Below are positions 2,873 through 31,706 of a stretch of DNA of 50,959 nucleotides, piece after piece. Position 1 is the first letter of the stretch; each line of letters opens with the position of its first letter. The stretch comes from Candidatus Minusculum obligatum. GTDB lineage: Bacteria > Patescibacteriota > Minisyncoccia > Phycocordibacterales > Phycocordibacteraceae. The stretch is taken from positions 1 to 50,959 of the forward strand of contig DCYT01000001.1 of the NCBI GenBank assembly GCA_002331145.1. Direction: 5' to 3'. Below the pieces are notes generated by a model that searched no databases, was not told the DNA's origin, and worked only from the letters and a program-made list of their open reading frames with translations. A program made the translations under genes and the position numbers.

Positions 2873-4168
2873 ATGAATTCGCGCGAGATGTTGGTTGTGA
2901 AAGGTCTTGGAGGAAAGAAAACACTTTCGGGCGAAATTACTATTAACGGTGCAAAAAATGCAGTATTGCCACTTATGGCATCTGCAATTCTTTTTAATGG
3001 GAAGGTGCAAATCAAAAAACTTCCAGAGATTCGAGATGTTATTGCAATGCGAGAGTTACTCGCAGGCCTTGGTGCAGAGGTGTCCCAAAAAGGAAATGTA
3101 CTTTCTATAACTCCATCAAAGAAATCAAAAGGAGTGCTAGATGAAGATGTGGCAAAGCGTTTGCGGGCTTCAATTATTTTAACGGGACCTACTCTTGGAA
3201 AATATGGGAAAGTTGTATTTCCGCATCCCGGAGGATGTGTGTTAGGAGCTCGTCCAATTGACCTTTTTCTTTCTGCATATGAGAAGATGGGTGCAACAGT
3301 TGAACACAGTGGAAAGGCGTACATAATTAAGGCTCCACGTGGAGGGCTTAAGGGCGCAAATATTTTCTTTAAAACGATGAGTATGACCGCAACAGAAGCG
3401 CTCATGTTTGCAGCAACACAAGCAAATGGGAAGACTGTGCTTCATAACTGCGCCATGGAGCCGGAGATTGCATTTCTTGCTGACTGTCTAAATCAAGGAG
3501 GTGCAAAAATTGTAGGGGCTGGAACGCCAACAATTACTATTACACCCACAAAGAGCCTAAAGCAGAAGAAAGCATTTCCAGTACTTCCTGATCGTATTGA
3601 GGCAGGAAGCTTCCTTATTTTGGGTGCGCTTCTTGCGAAGAATTTAACTATTAAGAATGTTATTCCAGAACATCTTCAGATTGTTATTGAGCTTCTAAAA
3701 GAATCAGGTGTTCCTATAACAACTACAAAAAATACTATCTCAATAAAGAACAACATAAAACCAAACAGTTCATTTGAACCAGTGTCATTTAGAACTCATG
3801 AGTACCCAGGATTCCCAACAGACCTGCAGGCGCCAATGGTTGTATTTTTAACTCAAACAAAAGGAGAGAGTACTGTGCTTGAAACAGTGTTCGACAATAG
3901 ATTTAATTTTGTACAAGATCTTGTTCGTATGGGAGCAAGAGCAAGTATTTGGAATCCACACCAAATAACGGTGTACGGTCCATCAAAGCTAAAGGCGCGA
4001 CACTTAACAGGTCCTGATATTAGAGCTGGTCTTGCGTACATAATTGCAGCGCTTCTTGCAAAGGGAACAGGAACTATAGATAATGTGCACCTTATTGATC
4101 GAGGATATGCAGATATTGAAGGAAGGTTATCTGCACTCGGTGCAACTGTTGAGCGAAGAGAAGCATGA
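2873..4168 (+). CDS. murA: UDP-N-acetylglucosamine 1-carboxyvinyltransferase
   Basis: 431 aa. Has the INGAKNA N-terminus, the active-site Cys context HPGGCVLGARPID and the C-terminal IDRGY..IE..L..LGA. Confidence 0.95.
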   Translation: MNSREMLVVKGLGGKKTLSGEITINGAKNAVLPLMASAILFNGKVQIKKLPEIRDVIAMRELLAGLGAEVSQKGNVLSITPSKKSKGVLDEDVAKRLRASIILTGPTLGKYGKVVFPHPGGCVLGARPIDLFLSAYEKMGATVEHSGKAYIIKAPRGGLKGANIFFKTMSMTATEALMFAATQANGKTVLHNCAMEPEIAFLADCLNQGGAKIVGAGTPTITITPTKSLKQKKAFPVLPDRIEAGSFLILGALLAKNLTIKNVIPEHLQIVIELLKESGVPITTTKNTISIKNNIKPNSSFEPVSFRTHEYPGFPTDLQAPMVVFLTQTKGESTVLETVFDNRFNFVQDLVRMGARASIWNPHQITVYGPSKLKARHLTGPDIRAGLAYIIAALLAKGTGTIDNVHLIDRGYADIEGRLSALGATVERREA

Positions 4169-5178
4169 GTTATTTTTCACCAAAGCTAGGAATCGATTTA
4201 GGAACCACAAATATTTTGGTGCATCTTCCTGATAAGGGGGTGGTGCTTAACGAGCCGTCTGTGGTTGCTGTTTCTGAGCAAAACAACAAAGTTTTAGCCA
4301 TTGGTGCTGAAGCAAAGAAAATGATTGGACGAACACCAGATGATATTGTGGCGTATCGACCAATGAAAGATGGAGTTATTGCTGACTATCGCGTAACAGA
4401 AGCAATGCTTCGTTACTATATGCGAAAGGCATTGGGACGATGGAATTTCTTTAAGCCCAACGTAATGATTTCTGTTCCTGCGGGAGTTACGGGGACAGAG
4501 CGTCGTGCAGTAGTAGAGGCTGCAGTTCGTGCAGGTGCTAAAAATGCATATGTTGTAAAAGAACCAATTCTTGCTGCTATTGGTGCAGGGGTTCCTATTC
4601 AAGAGCCATATGGTCACATGATCGTAGACGCTGGAGGTGGAACTATCGATGCAGCTGTAATCTCATTAGGAGGAATTGTGTGTGCGAATTCTGTGAAGTG
4701 CTCTGGAAATAAACTAGATCACGCCATCGTTGATTATTTAAAAAAGAATTACAACCTTGCCATTGGAGACAAGATGGCTGAGGACATAAAAATAAAAGTT
4801 GGGGCGGCGCTTCCGCTTGATGTGCCACTTACTATGGAGGTGCGGGGAAGGGATTTGGTATCAGGACTTCCAAGGACAGTTGAATTAAATACAAATGACG
4901 TTGTAGATGCTTTAAGTAAAGAGCTTCGAGAGATGATTCGTGCAATTCGAACAGTGCTTGAGCAAACACCTCCAGAGCTTGCAGCCGACATTATCGACAG
5001 GGGAATCATAATGACAGGAGGAACATCTCAGCTTCGAAATTTCCCAGAGCTCGTACTTCGAAAAACAGGAGTTAAAGCACGTCTGGCAAATGATGCATAT
5101 TTCTGTGTGGTGAAAGGAACAGGAATCGCACTAAAACATCTAGATACATATCAGAGAAGTATCATAAGTAAGAAATAA
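4165..5178 (+). CDS. mreB: MreB/Mbl-like actin homolog (paralog 1)
   Basis: 337 aa. Motifs GIDLGTTNILV, NEPSVVA, DAGGGTIDAAVISLGG and IMTGGTSQLRN. ATGA overlap with murA. Confidence 0.9.
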   Translation: MSYFSPKLGIDLGTTNILVHLPDKGVVLNEPSVVAVSEQNNKVLAIGAEAKKMIGRTPDDIVAYRPMKDGVIADYRVTEAMLRYYMRKALGRWNFFKPNVMISVPAGVTGTERRAVVEAAVRAGAKNAYVVKEPILAAIGAGVPIQEPYGHMIVDAGGGTIDAAVISLGGIVCANSVKCSGNKLDHAIVDYLKKNYNLAIGDKMAEDIKIKVGAALPLDVPLTMEVRGRDLVSGLPRTVELNTNDVVDALSKELREMIRAIRTVLEQTPPELAADIIDRGIIMTGGTSQLRNFPELVLRKTGVKARLANDAYFCVVKGTGIALKHLDTYQRSIISKK

Positions 5179-7165: not shown

Positions 7166-8250
7166 TGGGAATTCTTACGTTCATAATTGTACTTGTCGCA
7201 CTCATTGTTGTTCATGAGTTTGGGCATTTTATAGTGGCCAAGTGGTCAAAGATGCGAGTTGATGAATTTGGTCTGGGGTACCCACCAAAACTTTGGGGTA
7301 AAAAGATTGGAGAAACAGAATACACGCTTAATGCGCTTCCATTTGGAGGGTTTGTAAAGATTTATGGAGAAGATTCAGATGAATCTACAGAAGATAGTGC
7401 TCGAGCATTTACAAATCGTCCTCGTATCTTGCAGGCGCTAACTCTTGTTGCAGGAGTTGCAATGAATGTACTTGTTGCGTGGCTACTTCTTCTTATTGTG
7501 CTTACGTCAGGAGCACCACGTGCGCTTACTCCAGAGCAGGTACCAAATGCTGTAAATCCAGAACTTACTGTTACGTACGTTGTTCCAGGAACTCCAGCTG
7601 CTAATGCAGGCCTTAAGGCAGGGGATGTGCTGCTTGAAGGATCTTATGGAGACACTTCTTTTTATAATTCAAATGTAGATGAGTTTGTAACTTTTGTAGG
7701 AGGAGCAACCGACACTGAAGTTTCTCTTATTGTAGAGAGAGGAAATGAGCAAAAAGAACTTGCCATTACTCCAGAGGCGGGAATTGTAGAAGGGCAAGGT
7801 GCTATCGGTGTAGGACTTGCTGTTGTTGGATCAATAGAGCTTCCACTGCATGAGACTCTTGTGGAGTCTGTGGTTATCACAGGGATTCTTTTGAAAGACA
7901 TTACAATCGGCATCACAACATTCTTATTCCAAGCAATTACATTCTCAGCCGACTTCTCACAGGTTGCAGGACCAATTGGGATTGCTGGTGTTGTAGCAGA
8001 TGCTGGAGAAAATGGAATTATTCCACTTCTTTCTCTTACGGCTCTTATTTCTCTGAACCTTGCAGTTATTAATCTACTTCCAGTTCCGGCTCTTGATGGG
8101 GGAAGATTGCTCTTTGTGGCTGTTGAAGCAATCATTAGGAAGCCAATTCCAGCATCTGTTGCGCAGACTGCAAATACTATTGGATTTCTTCTTCTTATTC
8201 TCTTAATGATTGTGGTTTCTATAAGTGATATTGGAAAGTTGCTGGGATAA
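7165..8250 (+). CDS. rseP: site-2 (M50, RseP-type) membrane metalloprotease
   Basis: HEFGHF zinc motif at the N-terminus, a central PDZ-like segment (GTPAANAGLKAGDVLL) and the C-terminal NLLPVPALDGG motif. Confidence 0.9.
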   Translation: MGILTFIIVLVALIVVHEFGHFIVAKWSKMRVDEFGLGYPPKLWGKKIGETEYTLNALPFGGFVKIYGEDSDESTEDSARAFTNRPRILQALTLVAGVAMNVLVAWLLLLIVLTSGAPRALTPEQVPNAVNPELTVTYVVPGTPAANAGLKAGDVLLEGSYGDTSFYNSNVDEFVTFVGGATDTEVSLIVERGNEQKELAITPEAGIVEGQGAIGVGLAVVGSIELPLHETLVESVVITGILLKDITIGITTFLFQAITFSADFSQVAGPIGIAGVVADAGENGIIPLLSLTALISLNLAVINLLPVPALDGGRLLFVAVEAIIRKPIPASVAQTANTIGFLLLILLMIVVSISDIGKLLG

Positions 8251-20648: not shown

Positions 20649-21921
20649 ATCCATCATTGTTGCCATCACCACTCTCGAAGCAAAGATGGTGTTGAAGAAA
20701 TATAAACCAACGATTGTTGTGGTTACTGGAAGTGTTGGAAAGACCTCAATGAAAGATGCTGTTGCTCATGTATTGGAGCAACAGTTTTTTGTTCGCAAAA
20801 GCCAAAAAAGCTATAACTCTGAGACAGGAGTTCCTCTCACAATTTTGGGATGTGAGAATCCTTGGAACAGTCATGTTCTCTGGATGAAAGTAATTGTAGA
20901 GGGACTTCTCCTTATTTTTACACAAAACCACTATCCAAAAATTTTAGTATTAGAGGTTGGGGCAGATAAGCCAGGAGATGTAAAAGGAATGATGGATTGG
21001 ATTACACCTAACGTCGTTATTGTGACAAAACTTCCAAGTATTCCAGTTCATGTAGAGGCGTACGCTTCGCCAGACCAGACGCGAGAAGAAGAATTTTCTC
21101 CAGCACATGCGCTCGGAAGTGATGGAACGCTTATCTACAGCAAAGATGATGAGTTTGCAGCTGAGCTTGCAAAGGGAGTTGGCGCAAACGTTATAACGTA
21201 TGGGCTAAAAGAGGGTGCAGACATTGTTGGAGAGTACAAAGGCCTTGTCTACGATGGAAATGCTCCAAAAGGAATTTCCGCAGATATCATTCGGGACGGG
21301 AAGCGTGAGTGCGTGGTTGTAAATGGAGCAGCAGGGAAACATCAACTATATCCAGCTCTTGGTGCATATGCCACAGGACTTGTATTTGATCTTATCCCTA
21401 GTCAGATTTGTGAAGCAATTCAAGGATATACTCCTCCACAAGGTCGTATGAGAGTACATGAAGGAATTAAAAACACACTTCTTATTGATGACTCATACAA
21501 CGCATCTCCTGTAGCTATGATCGCAGCACTTGATACGCTTAATGAGATTCAGGCGGCAGGAGAGAAGATTGTAGTACTTGGAGATATGTTGGAGCTTGGA
21601 ACATTTTCAATGGATGAGCATATGCATGTGGGAAGGTATGCGGCAAAGAAAGCAGACTTGCTTGTAACGGTAGGGTTGCGGGCAAAAGGGATTGCAGATG
21701 GAGCAAATAAAGCTCGTATGGCAAAGAAGAATATGGTGCACTTTAATACATCAGAGGAGGCAGCAGAGTTTTTAATAGAAAAGGTAGAGAGTGGAGACGT
21801 GGTTTTGGTAAAAGGATCTCAAGGGGTACGAATGGAGAAAATAACAGAAGCACTTTTGCAAGATAAGAGTAGAGCTTCAGAGCTTCTGGTGCGACAAGAT
21901 GTTGAATGGAAAAAGCGTTAG
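20632..21921 (+). CDS. murF: UDP-N-acetylmuramoyl-tripeptide--D-alanyl-D-alanine ligase (Mur ligase family)
   Basis: P-loop VVTGSVGKTSMKD, DDSYNASP and the position after ftsI. Confidence 0.8.
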   Translation: MKTFLKSIIVAITTLEAKMVLKKYKPTIVVVTGSVGKTSMKDAVAHVLEQQFFVRKSQKSYNSETGVPLTILGCENPWNSHVLWMKVIVEGLLLIFTQNHYPKILVLEVGADKPGDVKGMMDWITPNVVIVTKLPSIPVHVEAYASPDQTREEEFSPAHALGSDGTLIYSKDDEFAAELAKGVGANVITYGLKEGADIVGEYKGLVYDGNAPKGISADIIRDGKRECVVVNGAAGKHQLYPALGAYATGLVFDLIPSQICEAIQGYTPPQGRMRVHEGIKNTLLIDDSYNASPVAMIAALDTLNEIQAAGEKIVVLGDMLELGTFSMDEHMHVGRYAAKKADLLVTVGLRAKGIADGANKARMAKKNMVHFNTSEEAAEFLIEKVESGDVVLVKGSQGVRMEKITEALLQDKSRASELLVRQDVEWKKR

Positions 21922-22003
21922 TGGTATGTTGATTTGGTCGCCGATTGGGCGATTTGATCTTTATGGGAAGGGTAGATAATGCCGAAAAAGGAAACACGTG
22001 AAG

Positions 22004-22196
22004 AAACGATGGCACGGCTTGGAGTCAAGAAGGACCTTGTCCTTGCGGGCCCTCCAGACTCGAGGAGACCGGTTGGAGGAGTTCTTGTTCCTTCTGGTCG
22101 CTCCGAATTTGACACCAGGATCACCAAACGCCGCTAATCGTTTGTTTTCAAACGGTTCCATAAACGCCACATTGCAGAAAGCAGTGTGGCGTTTTC
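22004..22196 (+). ncRNA. candidate structured RNA with closing helix and terminator, class unknown
   Basis: GC-rich intergenic stretch. Long-range helix AACGAT.GC..GGC.TTGG (22005-22024) pairs with CCAA..GCC.GC..ATCGTT (22123-22142), followed by a terminator at 22164-22196. One stem position is a U-G pair that is only valid on the plus strand. Confidence 0.4.
22164..22196 (+). terminator. intrinsic terminator
   Basis: ACGCCACATTGC-AGAAA-GCAGTGTGGCGT followed by TTTTC. Confidence 0.7.
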
Positions 22197-22234
22197 AAAT
22201 ATAAATTTCCATGGTATATTCCACGACACAAACA

Positions 22235-22309
22235 GGCCCTATCGTCTAGCGGCTAGGACATCGCCCTCTCACGGCGGAAACCGGGGTTCGATTCCCCGTA
22301 GGGTCACCA
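22235..22309 (+). tRNA. tRNA-Glu (anticodon CTC), CCA encoded
   Basis: GGCCCTA acceptor stem, GTCT/GGAC D-stem, anticodon stem UCGCC/GGCGG with loop CUCUCAC, T-arm CGGGG-TTCGATT-CCCCG, then TAGGGTC-A-CCA. Confidence 0.95.
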
Positions 22310-23795
22310 ATTTAGATGTATCAGCACCAGCCTTCTTATTTATCTCGAAAATAAGGGACATTTTAGTGGTTCCAAATTTTGCTCCATCAAAAGTGATTTT
22401 TTCAGGAAATAGCAGTTTTTGGAACCGTAGTCTATGTTCTGGTTGTTTTTCTAAATCTTTCCACGTTTTAGAACTGTCTCTAACAAAATCAAAACAAAAT
22501 GAGAGTGCCTCATCCATATTTAATTCTTCAAATTGCTTTTCTTTTAAAAGAGATTTATTAAGATGTATTCGTTTGTTTATAGATTCTTTTTGCTCTAAAA
22601 ATTCTATATCCTTATAAACTCCAGATCTGTGGAATTCGAATACTTTTTGTCTTTCGTCTTCTAGATTTGAAATATCTCTCCTCACTTTTTCATTTTCTTT
22701 ATCAAGTTTTTTAAAGTTGGATTGCCAGACATCTAATACAACAGCCTTGAAAGCTTCTTCATACTCTTTCTCTTTTGGAGCAACCGTTTCGAGGAAAGAT
22801 ATAAAATTTGCTTCAAACTTTTCTTTAGAGTGAGACTTTGCGTGAGGACAATTTTGTTTCTGGTGGTGGTAGTAAGGATATTTTTTTCCTTTTCTTCCTG
22901 TGGAAGAACTTCCCGTTAAGGTCACCTCGCAATGGTCACATTTAACAAACTTTCGCAAAGGAAACTCAGGGTTTTGTTTTAACCTAGGCCCGTCCCCATA
23001 CTTTCTATGTACTCCAGGCTGACATTTCCAAAATAGATCCTCACTAATAATTGGTTCAAAACTTCCTACAACTTCCATATCAAAAGCCTGTATCAATCCG
23101 TAGTAAATGTGGTTTTTAATTATCTTTTCTATAGATTGAGGATATAGTTTTTTCCCTGAAGATCCCACCAAACCTTTTTTATATAAAAGGTTAGATAATG
23201 ATTTAAAACTATGTACACCTTTCGACCACTCTTCGAATGCCATACGTATGTAAGGGGCTACAGAATCGTCTATAACAAGATTTCCGCCTTTTATTACACG
23301 CTTGTATCCCAAAGGAGCTTTCCATACCCATACGCCTGATTTTACGCGTTCCACCATACCGCCTTTACTGCGTGTGGCTCTAGTACTATTTTCAAACTCG
23401 GCAAAAAGAGCAAGCATTCCCTCTGAAAGCATTCCTACAGGACTATCATCCATATGCTCAGTTACTGATTGCAGACTTGTTCCATATTTTTTTAGAAAAC
23501 TTCTAGCAACAACGTGATCATTCTGATTTCTGGCAAACCTGTCAATCTTATAAACAAGAAAGAAGTCAATGGAATTCTTTTTCTTTGAACAATAACTTAT
23601 AGCTTCTTGAAATTTTGGTCTGTTAGCTGTTTTTGCTGATTCTCCTTCTTCAACAAAACACTTAAGAACCTGTATTCCTTTATGATCAGCATACTCTTTG
23701 CAAATTCTTTCTTGACTGCGTAGACTCGTTCCTTTTACTTGTTCAGCAGAAGACACACGGCAGTAGATAATTCCTGTTTTCTTTTGAGTATCCAT
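22269..23795 (-). CDS. large serine recombinase
   Basis: 508 aa. N-terminal resolvase domain with catalytic Ser (GIIYCRVSSAEQ), a recombinase domain, a zinc-ribbon-like C.HC...C and a C-terminal coiled coil. The last 41 nt of the ORF are antisense to the tRNA-Glu 3' half. Confidence 0.95.
   Translation of the reverse strand: MDTQKKTGIIYCRVSSAEQVKGTSLRSQERICKEYADHKGIQVLKCFVEEGESAKTANRPKFQEAISYCSKKKNSIDFFLVYKIDRFARNQNDHVVARSFLKKYGTSLQSVTEHMDDSPVGMLSEGMLALFAEFENSTRATRSKGGMVERVKSGVWVWKAPLGYKRVIKGGNLVIDDSVAPYIRMAFEEWSKGVHSFKSLSNLLYKKGLVGSSGKKLYPQSIEKIIKNHIYYGLIQAFDMEVVGSFEPIISEDLFWKCQPGVHRKYGDGPRLKQNPEFPLRKFVKCDHCEVTLTGSSSTGRKGKKYPYYHHQKQNCPHAKSHSKEKFEANFISFLETVAPKEKEYEEAFKAVVLDVWQSNFKKLDKENEKVRRDISNLEDERQKVFEFHRSGVYKDIEFLEQKESINKRIHLNKSLLKEKQFEELNMDEALSFCFDFVRDSSKTWKDLEKQPEHRLRFQKLLFPEKITFDGAKFGTTKMSLIFEINKKAGADTSKLVTLRGIEPRFPP
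22301..22314 (+). repeat. left att core copy (GGGTCACCAATTTA)
   Basis: Covers the last 9 nt of tRNA-Glu plus 5 nt. Matches 27102-27115 at 13 of 14 positions. Confidence 0.6.
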
Positions 23796-23798
23796 ATA

Positions 23799-23990
23799 TC
23801 AAACGATAGTATCTTTACTGTTTTTTGTGAATAACCCAAGGTTATCTTTGGAACCATATTTTTTCTCCCAATAGGTATCAAACATGAGTTGAGCCGCTTC
23901 GTAGAATGCATCACGAATAGCCGCAACATCTTTATCAGGAAGACGTTTCAAACTCTTATCTATTTTTCGTAATTTTTCTATCGAGAGCAT
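23799..23990 (-). CDS. hypothetical 63-aa protein co-transcribed with the recombinase
   Basis: The ORF ends 3 nt before the recombinase ATG. Helical, charged sequence (..DKDVAAIRDAFYEAAQLMFDTYWEKKYG..). Confidence 0.55.
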   Translation of the reverse strand: MLSIEKLRKIDKSLKRLPDKDVAAIRDAFYEAAQLMFDTYWEKKYGSKDNLGLFTKNSKDTIV

Positions 23991-24033
23991 ATAAGCAAAA
24001 AGCAGCCATCGATGACTGCCTCTGCTTACTTAA

Positions 24034-24081
24034 GAATTGGTAGCTCAATACACAGTGACTGTGTCATCGAATTACCAATTC
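24034..24081. repeat. nested inverted repeat
   Basis: Outer arms GAATTGGTA (24034-24042) and TACCAATTC (24073-24081) enclose the inner hairpin ACACAG-TGA-CTGTGT. Confidence 0.6.
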
Positions 24082-24433
24082 AATACAAACTTACTATTTA
24101 GATCTAAATTCATTTTTAGAGCGCAAGCTCAAGGTTTTGTCCTATTCTTATCATCACTGACGCAGATGCCTCGTTAGAACACGTAGACTAAGTAGTGTAA
24201 GTATCAATTGGGAGATTAATAAAGATTTCTCTTAAGTTCCATTAGAGAAAGTTTCTATTAACCCTATTAACTGTTTGATATTGTATCAGAGTAGTTACCT
24301 ACCCTAAAAGGGGACAAAAGGTGGATAGAGTTTGATACCTTAACAAATAGGCTTGGAAGGTATAGAATTAGCAAACAATTGAATACGCTCTTTAGGAGCA
24401 AGGCCTAACCCATTTTTGGTATGGCCCAAAATT

Positions 24434-24476
24434 CGCGTTCAACGTAAAAACCCCGTCATCCAGGGCGTTGAACGCG
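24434..24476. repeat. 11-bp perfect inverted repeat
   Basis: CGCGTTCAACG (24434-24444) and CGTTGAACGCG (24466-24476) with a 21-nt loop. It lies about 55 nt upstream of the 24532 ORF and is followed by the tandem AGGATCTT AGGATCTT (24497-24512). Confidence 0.6.
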
Positions 24477-24531
24477 TTGCAGAGGGAAACTTCTGTAGGA
24501 TCTTAGGATCTTCTGGTGGCGGGATTTTTGT

Positions 24532-24870
24532 ATGAAAATAAACTTAGATAAAATTGAGAAAAATCTAGAAGCCTATCAAGCTTTTATTAAAGAAAATACT
24601 ACTAGTGAGCACAGGCAAAAGAGGTGGGGGCTTACGCTAGATAAAGAAGAAAATAGAAAAAAGTTTCCAAGGGAATTTATAGATGAAATAGGTGTTGAGT
24701 TAGATCATGCTCAAATAAAAAGATTCTTCATGATGAGTGACGCAGAAAAATTTCTATGGGCTTATTGGAGTCAAAGAAATATAGCAAGGAAAAGTTTTGT
24801 ATGGGGGATGTATGGTCTAATCTTTTTTATTGTCATCATCCTTATCATCTTTGGCAACCTCTTCTTCTGA
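24532..24870 (+). CDS. hypothetical tail-anchored membrane protein
   Basis: 112 aa. A soluble charged N-terminal part with a single C-terminal TM helix (GMYGLIFFIVIILIIFGNLFF). The last 54 nt overlap the 3' end of the convergent ATPase gene. Confidence 0.5.
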   Translation: MKINLDKIEKNLEAYQAFIKENTTSEHRQKRWGLTLDKEENRKKFPREFIDEIGVELDHAQIKRFFMMSDAEKFLWAYWSQRNIARKSFVWGMYGLIFFIVIILIIFGNLFF

Positions 24871-26916
24871 TTCTTTTCTGGTTAAATCCAAAATTATAGG
24901 CCTATTACTTCCAATCGCTTTACCGTGAACAACAGCATGATACTGCTTTAGTTTTTGTATATTTTTTATAAATTCTGTTCCTGTATAGTTGCTCATAAAC
25001 TCTTTTGTTGTTGTATCAAATGATTGAAGACATATCACGGTGTTGCATTGAGTTAATACAGTTTTTGATACGTTTGCCGATCGTTGGGCGATAACCAAGA
25101 GTCCGACACCGTATTTGCGTCCCTGAAGTGCAATTTGACTCATTCTACTTACAAGTTGCTTGTTGCTTCCATAATCTCCCATTTCGCCAAGAAAATTTGT
25201 TTCTGGAATAATGGTATGAGCTTCTTCAAGAACAATGCAAATTCGTTGATCTTCGTTATCTCTTGCAAGTTGAAATATTTCACCCAGGAAGATTTCTGTA
25301 TATGAAAGGATTGAAGTTGTCCCGGTAAAGCCAGGTAATTCAAACAGGCCAACATTATTGTCTGAGTCTTGCAAGAATGTTTCAATTCGGTTTTTTACTC
25401 TCTTTTTAATTTGGTCTTTGACAGTTGCTATTCCAGACTTGTTTTGAGCATTAGGTGATTTTTTGCTTTCCTCTTCTATATAATTGAATCTTTTTTCAGC
25501 AAAAGTTTTTGACGCATCATCTATAATTTCTACAGGGTTCAGCGAAGTAAGTTTTTCTTTGTATTCTCCTGTAAAATCTATACAGACAACCTTCATTTCT
25601 TTCTCAATTTCTGATATAAGTTCATGAGCAAGAAAAGATTTTCCTGACCCTGTAACTCCAAGTAGGGCAGTGTGGTGTGTTACGGCAGAAATTAAATCAA
25701 TAAAAACAGGTATTTTAATTTTTGGAATGAATCCAAGAGTATGTTCAATACGCCTCTCATCTTTTATGGGTTTTGGGTTATATTTATCGACCTGAGGAAA
25801 TTTAACAAGTTGATTTAGTTGTGGTGTCCATCCGTAAGGTTCAAATGTTCTATCTTTTTCATTGTAAAACCCAAGTTGTTCTGCGTGGGCAAAAATACCT
25901 CTTCTCGATATATTCTGAGCGAGTTCTTCGGTAGAGGTGGTTGCATCTATTATTTGGTAAAGAACCTCCCTCTCTTCTTTTTTGTTGTCCTTCGAATAAG
26001 AAATATCGACAACAACAACATCTCCTTCCTCTAAAGTACCCTCTGTAGAAGGGAACGGTTCAAATATTATTCTGTTAACATTAGAGCCGTCAGAAATTTT
26101 TCCAATAATACTCGAAGCTTTGTTTTTTGCGGCAATTTTAACAGACCGTTGTTTGCCTAAAATAATTTTAGAACCGTTAATGAGTATTGCTTCTGCAATA
26201 ATATCTTTATCAAGCGCCAGTAGATTTGTAATAACAAAATTACGTGTACTATTATTTTTATCCAGAACTTCAATGACAGTTCCTTCTGACAACCTCTCAT
26301 TTAACCTAAGTTTGATTGTAGTTTCACCCTGGATGGCGATAATGCTTCCAACAATACCATCTTCTTTTTCCTCAGAAACAAGATATTTTGAGAAGAAATC
26401 AATTATTTTATGTATCTCTTTTGCAAAGAGGGCAATTACAAAAGCAATTGTTAGTGCAGCAATTGATTCATTAGGGATTGTTTCTGCTGTTGTTAAGAAG
26501 AGTAAGAAGGCGAGAGGATACAGAACTCTAGACGCGCCAGCGCTACCAACAGCTTTTCTGAGAAAGTTAAGAATGTCAGAATCTTTTTCTTGTAGTGCTT
26601 TTAATATAAATGAAAGGATAAGAAGTATAGATACAAGAAGTACAAAAGGAAGCCAAAAATAAAATATTGCTGTACCTATAAATATTTCTGATTGGCTAAG
26701 TAGTAAAAGTAAAACTGCAAAAGTGTTGGCTAAGGCGGTTGCAGGAGAAGTGTAATATTGTTCAATAAAAAATGCCGCTATTATTAGCGGCAGAAATGCT
26801 AGAAAGAAAGTATTTGAAAGCCCAAGCAGAAAAAGACCTGTTGCTACAAAAATAATAGCTATCAAAATACGTAGGAAAATCTTTAAATTTTGTTCTTGAA
26901 TTTCTAGAAACTCCAT
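24817..26916 (-). CDS. membrane-anchored HerA/FtsK-superfamily (DUF87-like) ATPase
   Basis: 699 aa. About 5-6 TM helices in residues 1-175. Beta-rich barrel-like region at about 185-370. Walker A GVTGSGKS (420-427), Walker B ICIVLEEAH (559-567) and the HerA-like LLVIAQRSANVSKTVLTQCNTVICLQ. Acidic C-terminal tail. Confidence 0.85.
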   Translation of the reverse strand: MEFLEIQEQNLKIFLRILIAIIFVATGLFLLGLSNTFFLAFLPLIIAAFFIEQYYTSPATALANTFAVLLLLLSQSEIFIGTAIFYFWLPFVLLVSILLILSFILKALQEKDSDILNFLRKAVGSAGASRVLYPLAFLLFLTTAETIPNESIAALTIAFVIALFAKEIHKIIDFFSKYLVSEEKEDGIVGSIIAIQGETTIKLRLNERLSEGTVIEVLDKNNSTRNFVITNLLALDKDIIAEAILINGSKIILGKQRSVKIAAKNKASSIIGKISDGSNVNRIIFEPFPSTEGTLEEGDVVVVDISYSKDNKKEEREVLYQIIDATTSTEELAQNISRRGIFAHAEQLGFYNEKDRTFEPYGWTPQLNQLVKFPQVDKYNPKPIKDERRIEHTLGFIPKIKIPVFIDLISAVTHHTALLGVTGSGKSFLAHELISEIEKEMKVVCIDFTGEYKEKLTSLNPVEIIDDASKTFAEKRFNYIEEESKKSPNAQNKSGIATVKDQIKKRVKNRIETFLQDSDNNVGLFELPGFTGTTSILSYTEIFLGEIFQLARDNEDQRICIVLEEAHTIIPETNFLGEMGDYGSNKQLVSRMSQIALQGRKYGVGLLVIAQRSANVSKTVLTQCNTVICLQSFDTTTKEFMSNYTGTEFIKNIQKLKQYHAVVHGKAIGSNRPIILDLTRKESEEEVAKDDKDDDNKKD

Positions 26917-27101
26917 ATTGTTTGTTTAGTATGATGTTTTTGGAAAATAAAGGCAAGAAAGCTTTTTCTAATCTAAGTTGGTAGTTAAAATGTGAGTTTG
27001 TTTGAAATGGTGCAGTTTTGTTCTAAATCTTTTTGCTGAAACGTTAAATCTTTCCCAATCTTTCATTTCTTTTATTAATTGGTTCCAATTTCGTCCCACT
27101 T

Positions 27102-27115
27102 GGGTCACAAATTTA
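27102..27115 (+). repeat. right att core copy (GGGTCACAAATTTA)
   Basis: 13/14 match to 22301-22314. It sits where the AT-rich block ends. Confidence 0.6.
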
Positions 27116-27123
27116 TGAAAACA

Positions 27124-27151
27124 GCACGTAGTATTTACTACGTGCGGTTTT
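27124..27151 (+). terminator. intrinsic terminator, probably the original tRNA-Glu terminator displaced by the insertion
   Basis: GCACGTAGTA-TT-TACTACGTGC followed by GGTTTT. There is no plus-strand gene immediately upstream in the present arrangement. Confidence 0.6.
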
Positions 27152-27193
27152 CATTGTATAAAGCTTTTAGAAGTGAAGACTAAGGAGGCGAAT

Positions 27194-27817
27194 ATGTTTG
27201 TATACACTGTCGCTTTCTTTGCGACATTACCGCTACGAGTTGGAATTATTTGGAGAAATTTTCAATGCTGGCGCTTTGGGAAAGTTGCTCGAAAGCAAGA
27301 AGATCGTATCTACGAACTCAGTAAACATGTTCTTAATAGTTTTATCTCGGAAGATAAAACTATTAATTATATTGAATACCACTCACAACTTTCTTTGGGT
27401 TACCCAACAAAAGAAAATGGAGAGCGGTTTTCAGAGATATGTTGGGAAGCACCCATTTGCTTTACAATCTTCCATAATGACAAGCCGCTGGTTGGCATGG
27501 GCTTAGAGTTTCGAGGCTCAGCACTGTGCATATGGCAGCTTCAGGGTGTTCGTGGCGCAAAAGTACCAGAGACCATTCGTAAATGGCCAGCACTTTTTGT
27601 GGAGGGCGCAAAGAAATTTGCGTCAGAAACAAAAGAAATACGTTCAGTTCGAGTTTACGCAGCTGATCAACGTATTTCATACAGGTTTCCAGAAGGAGAT
27701 TTGAGTGAAGCGGATATGTGCAGGCACCAGAGAAATTTACGCCGTCGCTATGATGGCACTGCCAGACAGCAAGGTTTCAAAAAAGTATCAAAAAGGTATT
27801 GGGAGTGGAAAGGGTAA
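27194..27817 (+). CDS. hypothetical protein
   Basis: 207 aa from the ATG at 27194, with AAGGAGG 5 nt upstream. The track ORF uses a GTG at 27173. I recognise no motif. Confidence 0.7.
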   Translation: MFVYTVAFFATLPLRVGIIWRNFQCWRFGKVARKQEDRIYELSKHVLNSFISEDKTINYIEYHSQLSLGYPTKENGERFSEICWEAPICFTIFHNDKPLVGMGLEFRGSALCIWQLQGVRGAKVPETIRKWPALFVEGAKKFASETKEIRSVRVYAADQRISYRFPEGDLSEADMCRHQRNLRRRYDGTARQQGFKKVSKRYWEWKG

Positions 27818-30250: not shown

Positions 30251-30863
30251 AGGCATTACCTCATTTGATGTTATTCGGAAGCTTCGCAAAGAGCTTAATA
30301 TTCGCAAGATGGGGCATGCTGGAACATTAGATCCGCTTGCAAGTGGTCTTTTAATAATTGCCACAGAAACAGATACAAAAAAACTGGATCAGTTTTTAAA
30401 ACTTCCAAAGACGTATGAAGTTGCAGTTCGAATAGGGGAGAAGCGAAGCACGGGAGATCTAGAGGGAGAAATTTTAGAGAAGGTAGAGGTATCTGATATT
30501 AGTGAAGAGAAAGTAAAGGAGGTGCTTGATGGTTTTGTAAAAGTGCACACTCTTACTGTCCCAATGTATTCAGCGATTAAAGTAGATGGGAAACCTTTGT
30601 ATTGGTATGCAAGGAATGGAGTAAAGGTAGAGGCTCCGGAGAAAGATATGGAGGTAACAGACGTGAAGCTTTTAAATATAGAAAAGGGTGAAGATTTTGT
30701 AACGATTAATTTAGAACTCGCTGTTACGAGTGGTACGTACATAAGAGCTCTTGCAGAAAAGTTTGGAGAGTTACTTGGGTATCCTGCAACAACAGCAGAG
30801 CTAAGAAGGGCTGTAATAGGGGAGTATAAAGTGGAGGATGCAAAGAAAATAGCCGCAGATTAA
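30225..30863 (+). CDS. truB: tRNA pseudouridine(55) synthase
   Basis: ILLVDKPKGITSFDV and the catalytic Asp motif GHAGTLDPLASGLL. Confidence 0.95.
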   Translation: MILLVDKPKGITSFDVIRKLRKELNIRKMGHAGTLDPLASGLLIIATETDTKKLDQFLKLPKTYEVAVRIGEKRSTGDLEGEILEKVEVSDISEEKVKEVLDGFVKVHTLTVPMYSAIKVDGKPLYWYARNGVKVEAPEKDMEVTDVKLLNIEKGEDFVTINLELAVTSGTYIRALAEKFGELLGYPATTAELRRAVIGEYKVEDAKKIAAD

Positions 30864-30874
30864 ATAATCTACGG

Positions 30875-31438
30875 CTAGAAAAGTCCTGGCTGCTCGTCAC
30901 CTTTCACTGCAGCGGCCTTATGACCTTTTATCTCCTTGCGTCTACGTGTAGAGGTTGCTTTCTGGGCATTGATTCGTCGAATCATTGAAAGGAATTCACC
31001 TTGCTGCACATTGTGCTGCAAAGTTCCTTCCTCACGTCTCTTTGCAAGAAAGTCACTTGCAAAGTCGTCCTGCTCTCCACCACGGGGTCGCTTAGAAGAT
31101 CTTTGTTCACCCTCCACTTTTATCCGAAGAGAAATTCCTTTTCCGTACTGCCTGATACAGTTTTGGGCAAGTCTAAAAATATATTCTTCACGATGCGTTT
31201 CAAGCCGTATTGGTGTGGCGAAATAACGCTTCGTCTTTCTTTTCGGTTGCTTTGGAACGTGCTCAAAGTATTCAAGCTCACCGATAATATCATCAGCAAG
31301 CCTTTCAATACTTTCTGTTCCGTATACACGCATATTCAGAACTAATTTCTGAATGTAGATGCGAAGAGCGTGTGGGTCTTTCGGGAAGCTGCCTTTTTTA
31401 ATGGCAGCGTCCACAAAGTCTTGTAGTTCGCGTGCCAT
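30875..31438 (-). CDS. hypothetical basic protein
   Basis: 187 aa from MARELQDF, with GGAGA 5 nt upstream. Lys/Arg-rich C-terminal half. No recognised motif. Confidence 0.55.
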   Translation of the reverse strand: MARELQDFVDAAIKKGSFPKDPHALRIYIQKLVLNMRVYGTESIERLADDIIGELEYFEHVPKQPKRKTKRYFATPIRLETHREEYIFRLAQNCIRQYGKGISLRIKVEGEQRSSKRPRGGEQDDFASDFLAKRREEGTLQHNVQQGEFLSMIRRINAQKATSTRRRKEIKGHKAAAVKGDEQPGLF

Positions 31439-31466
31439 GTTGGTCTCCATAGTAGGGAACAACGCA

Positions 31467-31670
31467 CTATGCAGTGCGCTGTCTGGGGCGAATTACCCCT
31501 CGTTCACGAAGTTTTGCAAGCACTTTGCGCTTGAGGTTATTAACATCCGGCTTGTGCCGAATACCAACCCCCTCAATTGCCTTGATTGCAGCCAGTGGCC
31601 AACCAACATGCTTTGCAAGTTTTTCTTTGCGCCGAATTGTTGCATCGGCAAGAGCATCAATGTTGGCCAA
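31467..31670 (-). CDS. hypothetical small protein (TTG start proposed)
   Basis: GGGAGG lies 5 nt upstream of the TTG at 31670, downstream of a near-consensus promoter. The longer track ORF (to 31736) would start inside the -35 region. Confidence 0.45.
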   Translation of the reverse strand: MANIDALADATIRRKEKLAKHVGWPLAAIKAIEGVGIRHKPDVNNLKRKVLAKLRERGVIRPRQRTA

Positions 31671-31706
31671 AATAGCCTCCCATTTCTGTATTGAACGTCT
31701 GCGTAT

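Follow-up and report, generated by a model that had tools for sequence, protein, structure and literature searches.

A 4.8-kb element at the 3′ end of a Patescibacteria tRNA-Glu gene, probably inserted by a serine integrase whose gene contains its own attachment site

In the genome of Candidatus Minusculum obligatum, a member of the Patescibacteria, the 3′ end of a tRNA-Glu(CTC) gene is followed by several kilobases of AT-rich DNA that stop at a second, almost identical copy of that end. Is this DNA a true insertion, and if so, what placed it there? We addressed these questions in a stretch of 50,959 nucleotides (GenBank assembly GCA_002331145.1, contig DCYT01000001.1, positions 1 to 50,959, forward strand), referred to below as the window, for which an original prediction, made from the letters alone, had read positions 22301-27115 as an integrated element. 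Our analysis makes it very probable that the locus holds a 4,801-bp integrative element, inserted into the 3′ end of tRNA-Glu(CTC) by its own large serine recombinase, and that integration swaps the tail of this enzyme, possibly as a switch of state. The features that carry this reading are given here in window coordinates.

22235..22309, plus strand: tRNA-Glu(CTC), the target gene (ARAGORN; Rfam tRNA, 58.8 bits)
22269..23795, minus strand: int, large serine recombinase gene in its integrated (attL) form, 508 amino acids (aa) (Pfam; PHROG integrase, 1.7e-81)
22301..22314: attL copy of the repeat, GGGTCACCAATTTA, its GGGTCAC part at 22301-22307
26968..27108, minus strand: tail exon, the displaced 3′ end of int (46-aa open reading frame, ORF), beginning in the right-hand repeat (tail hidden Markov model (HMM), E=5.6e-12)
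27102..27115: attR copy of the repeat, GGGTCACAAATTTA, its GGGTCAC part at 27102-27108
27124-27145, extended arms 27115-27154, plus strand: host hairpin and T-run

The left repeat consists, as had been proposed, of the last 9 nt of tRNA-Glu plus 5 nt, in agreement with the tRNA end that ARAGORN places at 22309. GGGTCACCAATTTA and GGGTCACAAATTTA agree at 13 of 14 nt, with 7 nt as the longest identical displaced stretch; they are the sole matches at up to one mismatch in the whole window, and 100 shuffles produced none. The interior is indeed AT-rich, with a GC content of 35.0% compared to a mean of 42.2% in equal-sized windows elsewhere (standard deviation 1.1, minimum 39.4), and the compositional steps, which were to be looked for, coincide with both repeats. 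The gene beside the tRNA encodes a large serine recombinase of 508 aa, which overlaps the tRNA gene rather than merely abutting it.

To find an unoccupied version of the locus, we searched public metagenome contigs for a direct join between the tRNA end and the right flank, which gave one match, the related Tara Oceans contig CESG01063855.1 (L012). This contig reads tRNA-Glu, GGGTCACAAATTTATGAAAAC, the hairpin, a 207-aa gene and then the following genes, and the join after tRNA-Glu is GGGTCACAAATTTATG / GGGTCACAAATTTATGAAAACAGCACG. Its left flank is identical to the window at 185 of 186 positions and its right flank is 95.4% identical; therefore, the insert comprises 4,801 bp and varies between related strains. 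The element is a true insertion, present or absent at the tRNA 3′ end depending on the strain, as the original prediction held. The same contig displays the ancestral order that had been foreseen (tRNA-Glu, core, terminator, gene), and with the hairpin standing directly after the tRNA, it also supports the idea that the orphan hairpin beyond the right repeat was once the terminator of the tRNA gene, moved 4.8 kb away by the insertion. As in a tRNA-integrated genomic island in the Islander/TIGER sense, the tRNA gene is interrupted and restored, a displaced fragment marks the far boundary, an integrase lies at one end and a relative carries the empty site. Contigs matching the window came from Tara Oceans and other marine samples, with identical copies in several samples. 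Two Logan contigs of ERR599005 (the ends of L002 and L006) break in the tRNA at 22262-22291, off the att core, and show an overlap of 30 nt (k-1); this break probably stems from a tRNA k-mer common to other organisms, and it was not counted as evidence for an empty site.

The junctions allow the exchange to be narrowed. In our junction models, the empty attB reads ...CCCCGTAGGGTCACAAATTTATGAAAAC... and the circular attP reads ...CCCACTTGGGTCACCAATTTAGATGTATC.... At one position attL has a C where attR and the empty site have an A, a mismatch that interrupts the 14-mer in the window. GGGTCAC is the only stretch identical in attL, attR and attB, and therefore holds the crossover, at the end of the acceptor stem. 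The 14-nt common core proposed earlier must accordingly be shortened: crossover is confined to GGGTCAC, and the AATTTA part is extra similarity that is dispensable for it. The worry that so long a core might be a coincidence is moot, because these 7 nt alone are common to attL, attR and the empty attB. We narrow the exchange to GGGTCAC and no finer, and we claim no central dinucleotide; inspection of the reconstructed attP and attB by eye revealed no convincing centre of dyad symmetry. In relatives, the identical core usually spans 7-10 nt and reads GGGTCAC or GGGCTAC in tRNA sense, which on the int strand becomes GTGACCC or GTAGCCC (TGGTAGCCC), the antisense of the tRNA acceptor end.

This comparison also reveals what the element contributes to the tRNA. 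The tRNA of the empty site ends ...GGGTCACAA, without an encoded CCA. The difference between C in attL and A in attR recurs in at least six other independent elements of the family, and the CCA therefore comes from the element, not from the host. The element thus rebuilds the tRNA end, supplying the discriminator-proximal bases and an encoded CCA that the native gene lacks.

Two traits of the locus that were absent from the original prediction concern an RNA of the LOOT class, described below, and the integrase ORF, which in the circular form crosses attL into the 46-aa ORF. In the integrated form, the tRNA gene contains, on its opposite strand, the final 41 nt of int with the stop codon. The resulting C-terminus, ...SKLVT-LRGIEPRFPP, takes residues 1-498 from the element, while its last 10 residues and the stop are antisense tRNA. 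When the element ends are joined in silico, as in an excised circle, the 46-aa ORF comes into frame and int encodes 542 aa, ending in ...SKLVT-QVGRNWNQLIKEMKDWERF...TNLD, of which the tail exon after the core provides 44 aa and the stop. These 44 displaced residues are conserved and carry the motif QVGRNWNQL..W..F. Read together, these sequences show that attP lies within the integrase ORF, and that integration splits the gene after residue 498 and exchanges its last 44 residues.

Homologs display both predicted versions of the protein. We searched a protein collection with the 542-aa reconstruction and tallied the C-termini of the 120 best matches. Most of these (89 of 120) are ~505-517 aa long and end in the antisense of the tRNA T-arm and acceptor, with end peptides such as LVTPRGIEPRF, LVDPTGFEPAASS, LVRPLGFEPRT... 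and ..PTGFEPAASS, and a further 17 have 517-555 aa and the tail LVTQVG.NWNQL..EL..W..FG, which matches the displaced ORF of the window. Pairwise differences between tail exons amount to 0.37, 0.26 and 0.54 at codon positions 1, 2 and 3, and the tail is therefore kept as protein, integrated copies included. Although AATTGGAACCAATT in the tail exon resembles a DNA-binding palindrome, its synonymous variation and this codon-position pattern indicate constraint on the protein.

Circular forms of related elements exist among assembled contigs. A Logan contig of 6,216 nt (L014) has a 30-nt (k-1) terminal overlap, an unsplit int of 527 aa and a LOOT match that runs across its ends. An NCBI contig of 4,154 nt (L179) has a 141-nt terminal overlap, giving a 4,013-bp circle, and an independent assembly (L180) is the same circle in permuted form; in both, the 528-aa int is unsplit and the 63-aa gene is present. 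No tRNA is found on the circular contigs.

We also analysed the enzyme itself. It has the parts of a large serine recombinase: a catalytic domain with its serine and arginines (PF00239, Resolvase, 5e-32, residues 9-156), followed by a recombinase domain (PF07508, 5e-9) and a zinc ribbon with an embedded coiled coil. Across 36 homologs, R13, S15, R86, R89 and the Cys/His columns are invariant. While attP falls within the integrase gene, the chemistry is that of a serine and not of a tyrosine recombinase; the element behaves like the Mx8 and SSV-type systems without belonging to them. Sequence matches in the PDB (3guv and the N-terminal domain of the TP901-1 integrase) cover the catalytic domain only, so that a comparison of folds was needed for the other domains. 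An AlphaFold2 (AF2) model of an unsplit homolog, 61% identical, has a mean predicted local distance difference test (pLDDT) score of 84.8, with long helices at 343-424. In Foldseek, this model matches best the full-length structures of the SPbeta, Bxb1, phiC31 and LI integrases (E 1e-12 to 1e-20). The domain order is the same as in the phiC31, Bxb1, SPbeta and A118/LI integrases, but sequence identity to these enzymes is only 15-20%. The tail is modelled as two helices (493-502 and 504-527, pLDDT ~90), which are predicted to follow the second half of the zinc-ribbon domain and to lie near the coiled-coil base. The coiled coil of known serine integrases drives attP × attB synapsis and governs directionality (PMC5499577, PMC3783163). 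We infer that the tail may influence directionality or stability, which fits the precedents of Mx8 (PMC6070905) and the SSV-type integrases (PMC7253208).

These data suggest a mechanism in which the tail swap would act as a built-in switch set by the integration state. Full-length integrase, expressed from the circle, would carry out attP × attB integration. The truncated integrase made after integration might have altered activity, directionality or stability, such that the insert is stabilised or its excision separately controlled, and the 63-aa protein encoded upstream of int might serve as the directionality factor. Expression of the HerA-like gene of the element could also depend on the state, because this gene stands in line behind the restored int in the circle. 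LOOT, a conserved RNA of the element that is transcribed away from int, might serve the cargo genes as leader or terminator, or the circular form as control or primer RNA.

The proposed switch has parallels among known systems. The phage large serine integrases phiC31, Bxb1, SPbeta and A118/LI act on sites within protein genes or between them, and their attP is outside int. For the Myxococcus phage Mx8, the bacterial target is a tRNA gene (tRNA-Asp). Its attP is inside the integrase gene, and integration creates a new 3′ end that alters the C-terminus without inactivation (PMC6070905). The window element resembles Mx8 IntP/IntX in its attP inside the integrase coding sequence and the change of C-terminus on integration; unlike Mx8, a 49-kb phage with a tyrosine recombinase, it measures 4.8 kb, has no phage genes, uses a serine recombinase and shares the arrangement with a whole family. 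SSV-type elements likewise have attP within their int gene, target a tRNA gene and translate the att site into part of the protein, all as in the window element, and the splitting there provides control of directionality without a separate factor (PMC7253208). These 'suicidal' integrases of archaeal viruses and plasmids (SSV1, pTN3, pT26-2) are tyrosine recombinases described as restricted to archaea (PMC7253208), and their split leaves two inactive pseudogenes, whereas here only the last 44 of 542 residues are displaced and the catalytic and DNA-binding domains stay in one ORF. The arrangement is a bacterial serine-recombinase variant of the Mx8 IntP/IntX and archaeal SSV designs. Integration-dependent immunity of the mycobacteriophages BPs and Brujita likewise places attP in a coding sequence and changes the C-terminus of a protein, affecting its stability or activity. 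There, however, a repressor gene is split and the integrase is of the tyrosine type, while here the integrase gene itself is split.

An integrated element at a tRNA is ordinary by itself; what makes this one interesting is a serine integrase at tRNA ends, with attP in int and a conserved tail that is displaced. The Islander paper describes tRNA and tmRNA (transfer-messenger RNA) targets as normally the territory of tyrosine integrases (PMC4383910), and targeting of such genes by serine integrases breaks the rule that tyrosine enzymes go with tRNAs and serine enzymes with protein genes. If true, this would be the first integration-state integrase switch among serine recombinases, a bacterial counterpart of the archaeal 'suicidal' integrases. 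Serine integrases are prized for a directionality that the coiled coil, together with a separate factor, determines, and rewriting of the C-terminus offers a new, testable form of direction control.

We then asked how far this arrangement extends. A scan of one genome per species gave 397 relatives, and the locus counts below rest on the best 80, nearly all from metagenome-assembled genomes of Patescibacteria; protein homologs carry source names such as Kaiserbacteria, Uhrbacteria, Paceibacterota, Minisyncoccia and Patescibacteria. At 60 of these 80 loci, the 3′ end of int overlaps a tRNA in antisense (52 Glu, 3 Lys, 3 Ala and 2 Arg). A 23-residue tail HMM placed a tail exon 2-10 kb upstream of int, and on its strand, at 33 of the 80 loci, and contiguous with int at two more. 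The implied elements measure 3.5-11 kb, mostly 4-6.5 kb, such that the 4.8 kb of the window element, originally judged unusually small, is typical of the family. Among 27 delimited elements (26 relatives and the window element), only int and the ~60-aa protein recur, and the remaining gene content, which varies among the elements, includes DNA methylases, M78/LexA-type regulators, a UvrD helicase, carbamoyltransferase, creatininase, prolyl-tRNA synthetase (ProRS), FUR, a PIN protein, a Z1-domain protein and one rolling-circle Rep. No replication or transfer gene is common to the delimited elements, and the family therefore probably spreads via host functions, for example DNA uptake.

Our literature searches found no description of this integrase family. 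The TIGER2 island survey used a size cut-off of 5 kbp (PMC9580842), and elements below 5 kb fall under it, which may be the reason that the family escaped notice. Much of bacterial diversity belongs to the Patescibacteria, most of which are uncultured and for which genetic tools hardly exist. Their mobile elements are poorly described; a large undescribed family with circular forms is a further point of interest. Small cargo islands at tRNA 3′ ends are known as integrative mobilizable elements and, in Prochlorococcus, as tycheposons, which combine a minimal integration module with variable cargo and no transfer apparatus. The window family is like the tycheposon-type islands in its minimal module and variable cargo at tRNA 3′ ends, but those islands have tyrosine or other recombinases and belong to other phyla, whereas here we find Patescibacteria, a serine recombinase and often LOOT. 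A compact and self-sufficient integration module of ~60 aa plus ~540 aa with a conserved tRNA-Glu target offers a view of gene flow in the reduced genomes of Patescibacteria and is a candidate engineering tool for them.

A more distant case hints that the layout may reach beyond the family. A serine integrase only 26% identical (L097:114-2066) runs with its 3′ end antisense into the 3′ end of a tmRNA gene, so that the attP/tRNA-type layout may not be limited to close relatives, and distant relatives may perform the same exchange with tmRNA. The same contig carries LOOT (4091-4214, 95 bits) and the closest homolog of the HerA-like cargo of the window. A 9-nt repeat of the tmRNA end at 7705 was judged a chance match, as the tail would have only 7 residues.

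The second component missed by the original prediction is the LOOT RNA, upstream of int and on the opposite strand.

24340..24368, plus strand: promoter-like site, ~30 nt upstream of LOOT (consensus match only)
24398..24531, plus strand: LOOT RNA with 3′ extension (Rfam RF03000 at 24402-24511)

RF03000 is matched over its full model length with 71 bits, above the gathering score of 46.4, which identifies the RNA as LOOT. The promoter-like site agrees with the consensus at 10 of 12 positions and has the top score in 21900-27400, tied with two others. Just 3′ of the Rfam model, a tail, GGTGGCGGG (24515-24523), pairs with the apical loop CCCGTCATC (24452-24460) of the long hairpin, and a U-tract follows. 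The longest run of this loop-to-tail pairing averages 11.75 nt compared to 6.6 in shuffles, with much covariation. In LOOT itself, compensatory changes support 20 of 31 pairs (7 homologs). Rfam lists LOOT as an RNA known from metagenomes (PMC7779021). Its published helix count is six, given which the loop-to-tail pairing may already be part of the curated motif. In the window, the 3′ strand of the pairing (GGCGGG; 24519-24534) stands 7 nt before the ATG of a 112-aa ORF and resembles a ribosome-binding site. Pairing could thereby mask translation initiation in the window element; in relatives, the ORF starts farther away.

Homologs of LOOT were sought with nhmmer and a covariance model built in this analysis. 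The model found LOOT in 35 of 82 related int-bearing sources, the window not counted, and in 32 of these 35 it lies 0.3-3.1 kb upstream of int, mostly on the strand opposite to int. An ORF usually follows after 16-60 nt and often encodes a membrane or secreted protein. Extra copies outside a delimited element or far from int (L016:1172-1308, L063:15464-15588, L054:8667-8788, L083:3161-3283) suggest neighbouring or tandem elements, or remnants.

Together, these observations let us propose, tentatively and as something still short of probable, a Patescibacteria-wide family of 3.5-11 kb with attP in int, in which the exchange of tail helices for an antisense peptide would be a state switch and LOOT would belong to the element core. 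If true, an orphan RNA so far known only from metagenomes gains its first genomic home and host, and LOOT is now open to study in a defined genetic context.

LOOT and the circles also raise the question of whether the element is better regarded as an integrative plasmid, with the circle as its main replicating state, the chromosomal copy at rest and LOOT as a ColE1-like primer or copy-number RNA. The assembly of two circular contigs from metagenomes suggests an appreciable copy number, LOOT is conserved beside the core, with a G-rich strand and a U-tract at its end, and such a role would explain the lack of a common Rep gene in the family. However, the 4.0-kb circle has no LOOT, most genomic family members are integrated, and LOOT usually precedes an ORF, as a leader would. 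We regard this reading as somewhat unlikely; it is in any case compatible with insertion and tail exchange by the element's own integrase, the explanation we prefer.

The remaining genes of the element are a small protein gene upstream of int and two cargo genes.

23799..23990, minus strand: 63-aa protein, 3 nt upstream of int
24532..24870, plus strand: 112-aa ORF with a C-terminal hydrophobic segment, cargo, directly downstream of LOOT
24817..26916, minus strand: 699-aa protein with N-terminal transmembrane segments and a HerA/FtsK-type ATPase, cargo

Orthologs of the 63-aa protein (MLSIEQLRKIDP..LSDEE...AQLAFD.W) are found directly upstream of int in 17 of the 27 delimited elements and in the circular contigs. 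The protein has no Pfam, PHROG, NCBIfam or PADLOC match, and it is a candidate directionality factor or regulator. A second cluster of small proteins upstream of int ('c1') has a high content of P, S, T and W; it was not counted, since it seems to be an out-of-frame artefact of elements with a higher GC content. For the 112-aa protein, we found no match in PHROGs, NCBIfam or PADLOC and only a weak one, DUF7516, in Pfam.

The 699-aa protein matches Pfam DUF87 (9e-14) and PADLOC HerA (3e-29), with all NCBIfam matches under cut-off, and in the circular form its gene would follow the full-length int, in the same orientation, after 51 nt. Such cargo is rare in the family, a distant HerA being found in 1 of the 26 other delimited elements. 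Homologs that are 34-41% identical occur in Campbellbacteria, Bacteroidota and other phyla. Their surroundings are mobile or resemble defence islands, with TIR, PLD and methylase genes or another serine recombinase as neighbours. The HerA matches are partial and under every curated cut-off, and, unlike in HerA-based anti-phage systems (SIR2-HerA, DUF4297-HerA), no effector partner gene (SIR2 or a nuclease) lies beside the ATPase in the element, only the 112-aa membrane ORF. From such sequence matches, a role in defence and one in DNA translocation both appear possible. In a Campbellbacteria sequence (L183:7505-9582), a HerA-like homolog lies a few kb from weak matches to pilins of a type IV secretion system (T4SS), a hint that some HerA-like ATPases belong to DNA-transfer clusters. 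Assemblies of ERR599048 and JGI 3300020257 (L003/L004 end, L010/L011 start) break inside the HerA-like gene, with its middle in neither contig, which may reflect microdiversity or low coverage in the cargo.

If the 699-aa ATPase were a coupling protein or TraB-like translocase exporting the circle through a secretion system of the host or of a co-resident element, the locus would be an integrative mobilizable element. Its layout, with transmembrane segments ahead of an ATPase of the FtsK/HerA type, weak matches to TrwB, FtsK, CedD and VirB4, the place of the gene directly behind int in the circle and the Campbellbacteria homolog near weak T4SS-pilin-like genes would be in keeping with this. 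The best ATPase matches, however, are HerA, the homologs sit among genes of defence islands, and the family does not conserve the ATPase. Neither a relaxase nor an oriT was seen, and the window element has no relaxase, T4SS or Rep gene by which it could be assigned to the integrative and conjugative elements (ICEs), the actinomycete ICEs included. We therefore consider export by this ATPase improbable.

Several points weigh against an integrative element with a switching integrase. The exchange point depends on a single empty-site contig, its strain having a right flank ~95% identical to that of the window, and the C/A difference could in principle be a polymorphism, although the same pattern in other elements argues otherwise. 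The match to the zinc-ribbon family PF13408 reaches 20.8 bits, under the Pfam cut-off of 25.3, and the predicted template modelling score of the AF2 model is low at 0.44, a value to be expected of a multi-domain protein. About half of the related elements, and the 4.0-kb circle, lack LOOT, which is therefore not essential. The attP pattern of the window element was not found in the viral contigs searched, its 542-aa form was not found in the protein collection, and no circular junction was found for it.

The absence of a circular form of the window element from the viral contigs and the protein collection, and a chromosomal int without its conserved tail, would also suit an immobile fossil, that is, a single insertion with a dead or domesticated truncated integrase. 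Yet all ORFs are intact, the tail exon included, the tail retains its coding pattern across integrated copies, and the element differs in presence or absence between strains with ~95% identical flanks while identical copies occur in several samples, all of which leaves a fossil quite improbable. A prophage remnant or phage satellite is very improbable indeed: the integrase matches a PHROG integrase family, the ATPase weakly matches a terminase-like PHROG and three cargo proteins of relatives match Terminase_2, but capsid, portal, tail and lysis genes are absent from the window element and its relatives, with no virion structural, packaging or lysis gene in the window element, the cargo is mostly metabolic, regulatory or restriction-type, and IMG/VR contains no family member, its best matches being 33-36% identical, which removed the phage reading.

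Some observations concern the surroundings of the element. The window and the empty-site strain differ at a second variable spot, where ~830 bp between the TruB-like and YqeY-like genes (window 30863-31694) are exchanged for ~400 bp of unlike sequence (L012:3934-4332). Between murF and the tRNA, public annotations place a 52-aa ORF (window 21979-22137, plus strand) that is G+C-rich and without a family match, and it may be no gene. The host appears Parcubacteria/Wolfebacteria-like: the window also encodes a class I lysyl-tRNA synthetase that is 79% identical to a Candidatus Wolfebacteria protein, with further matches in Kaiserbacteria, Parcubacteria and Patescibacteria.

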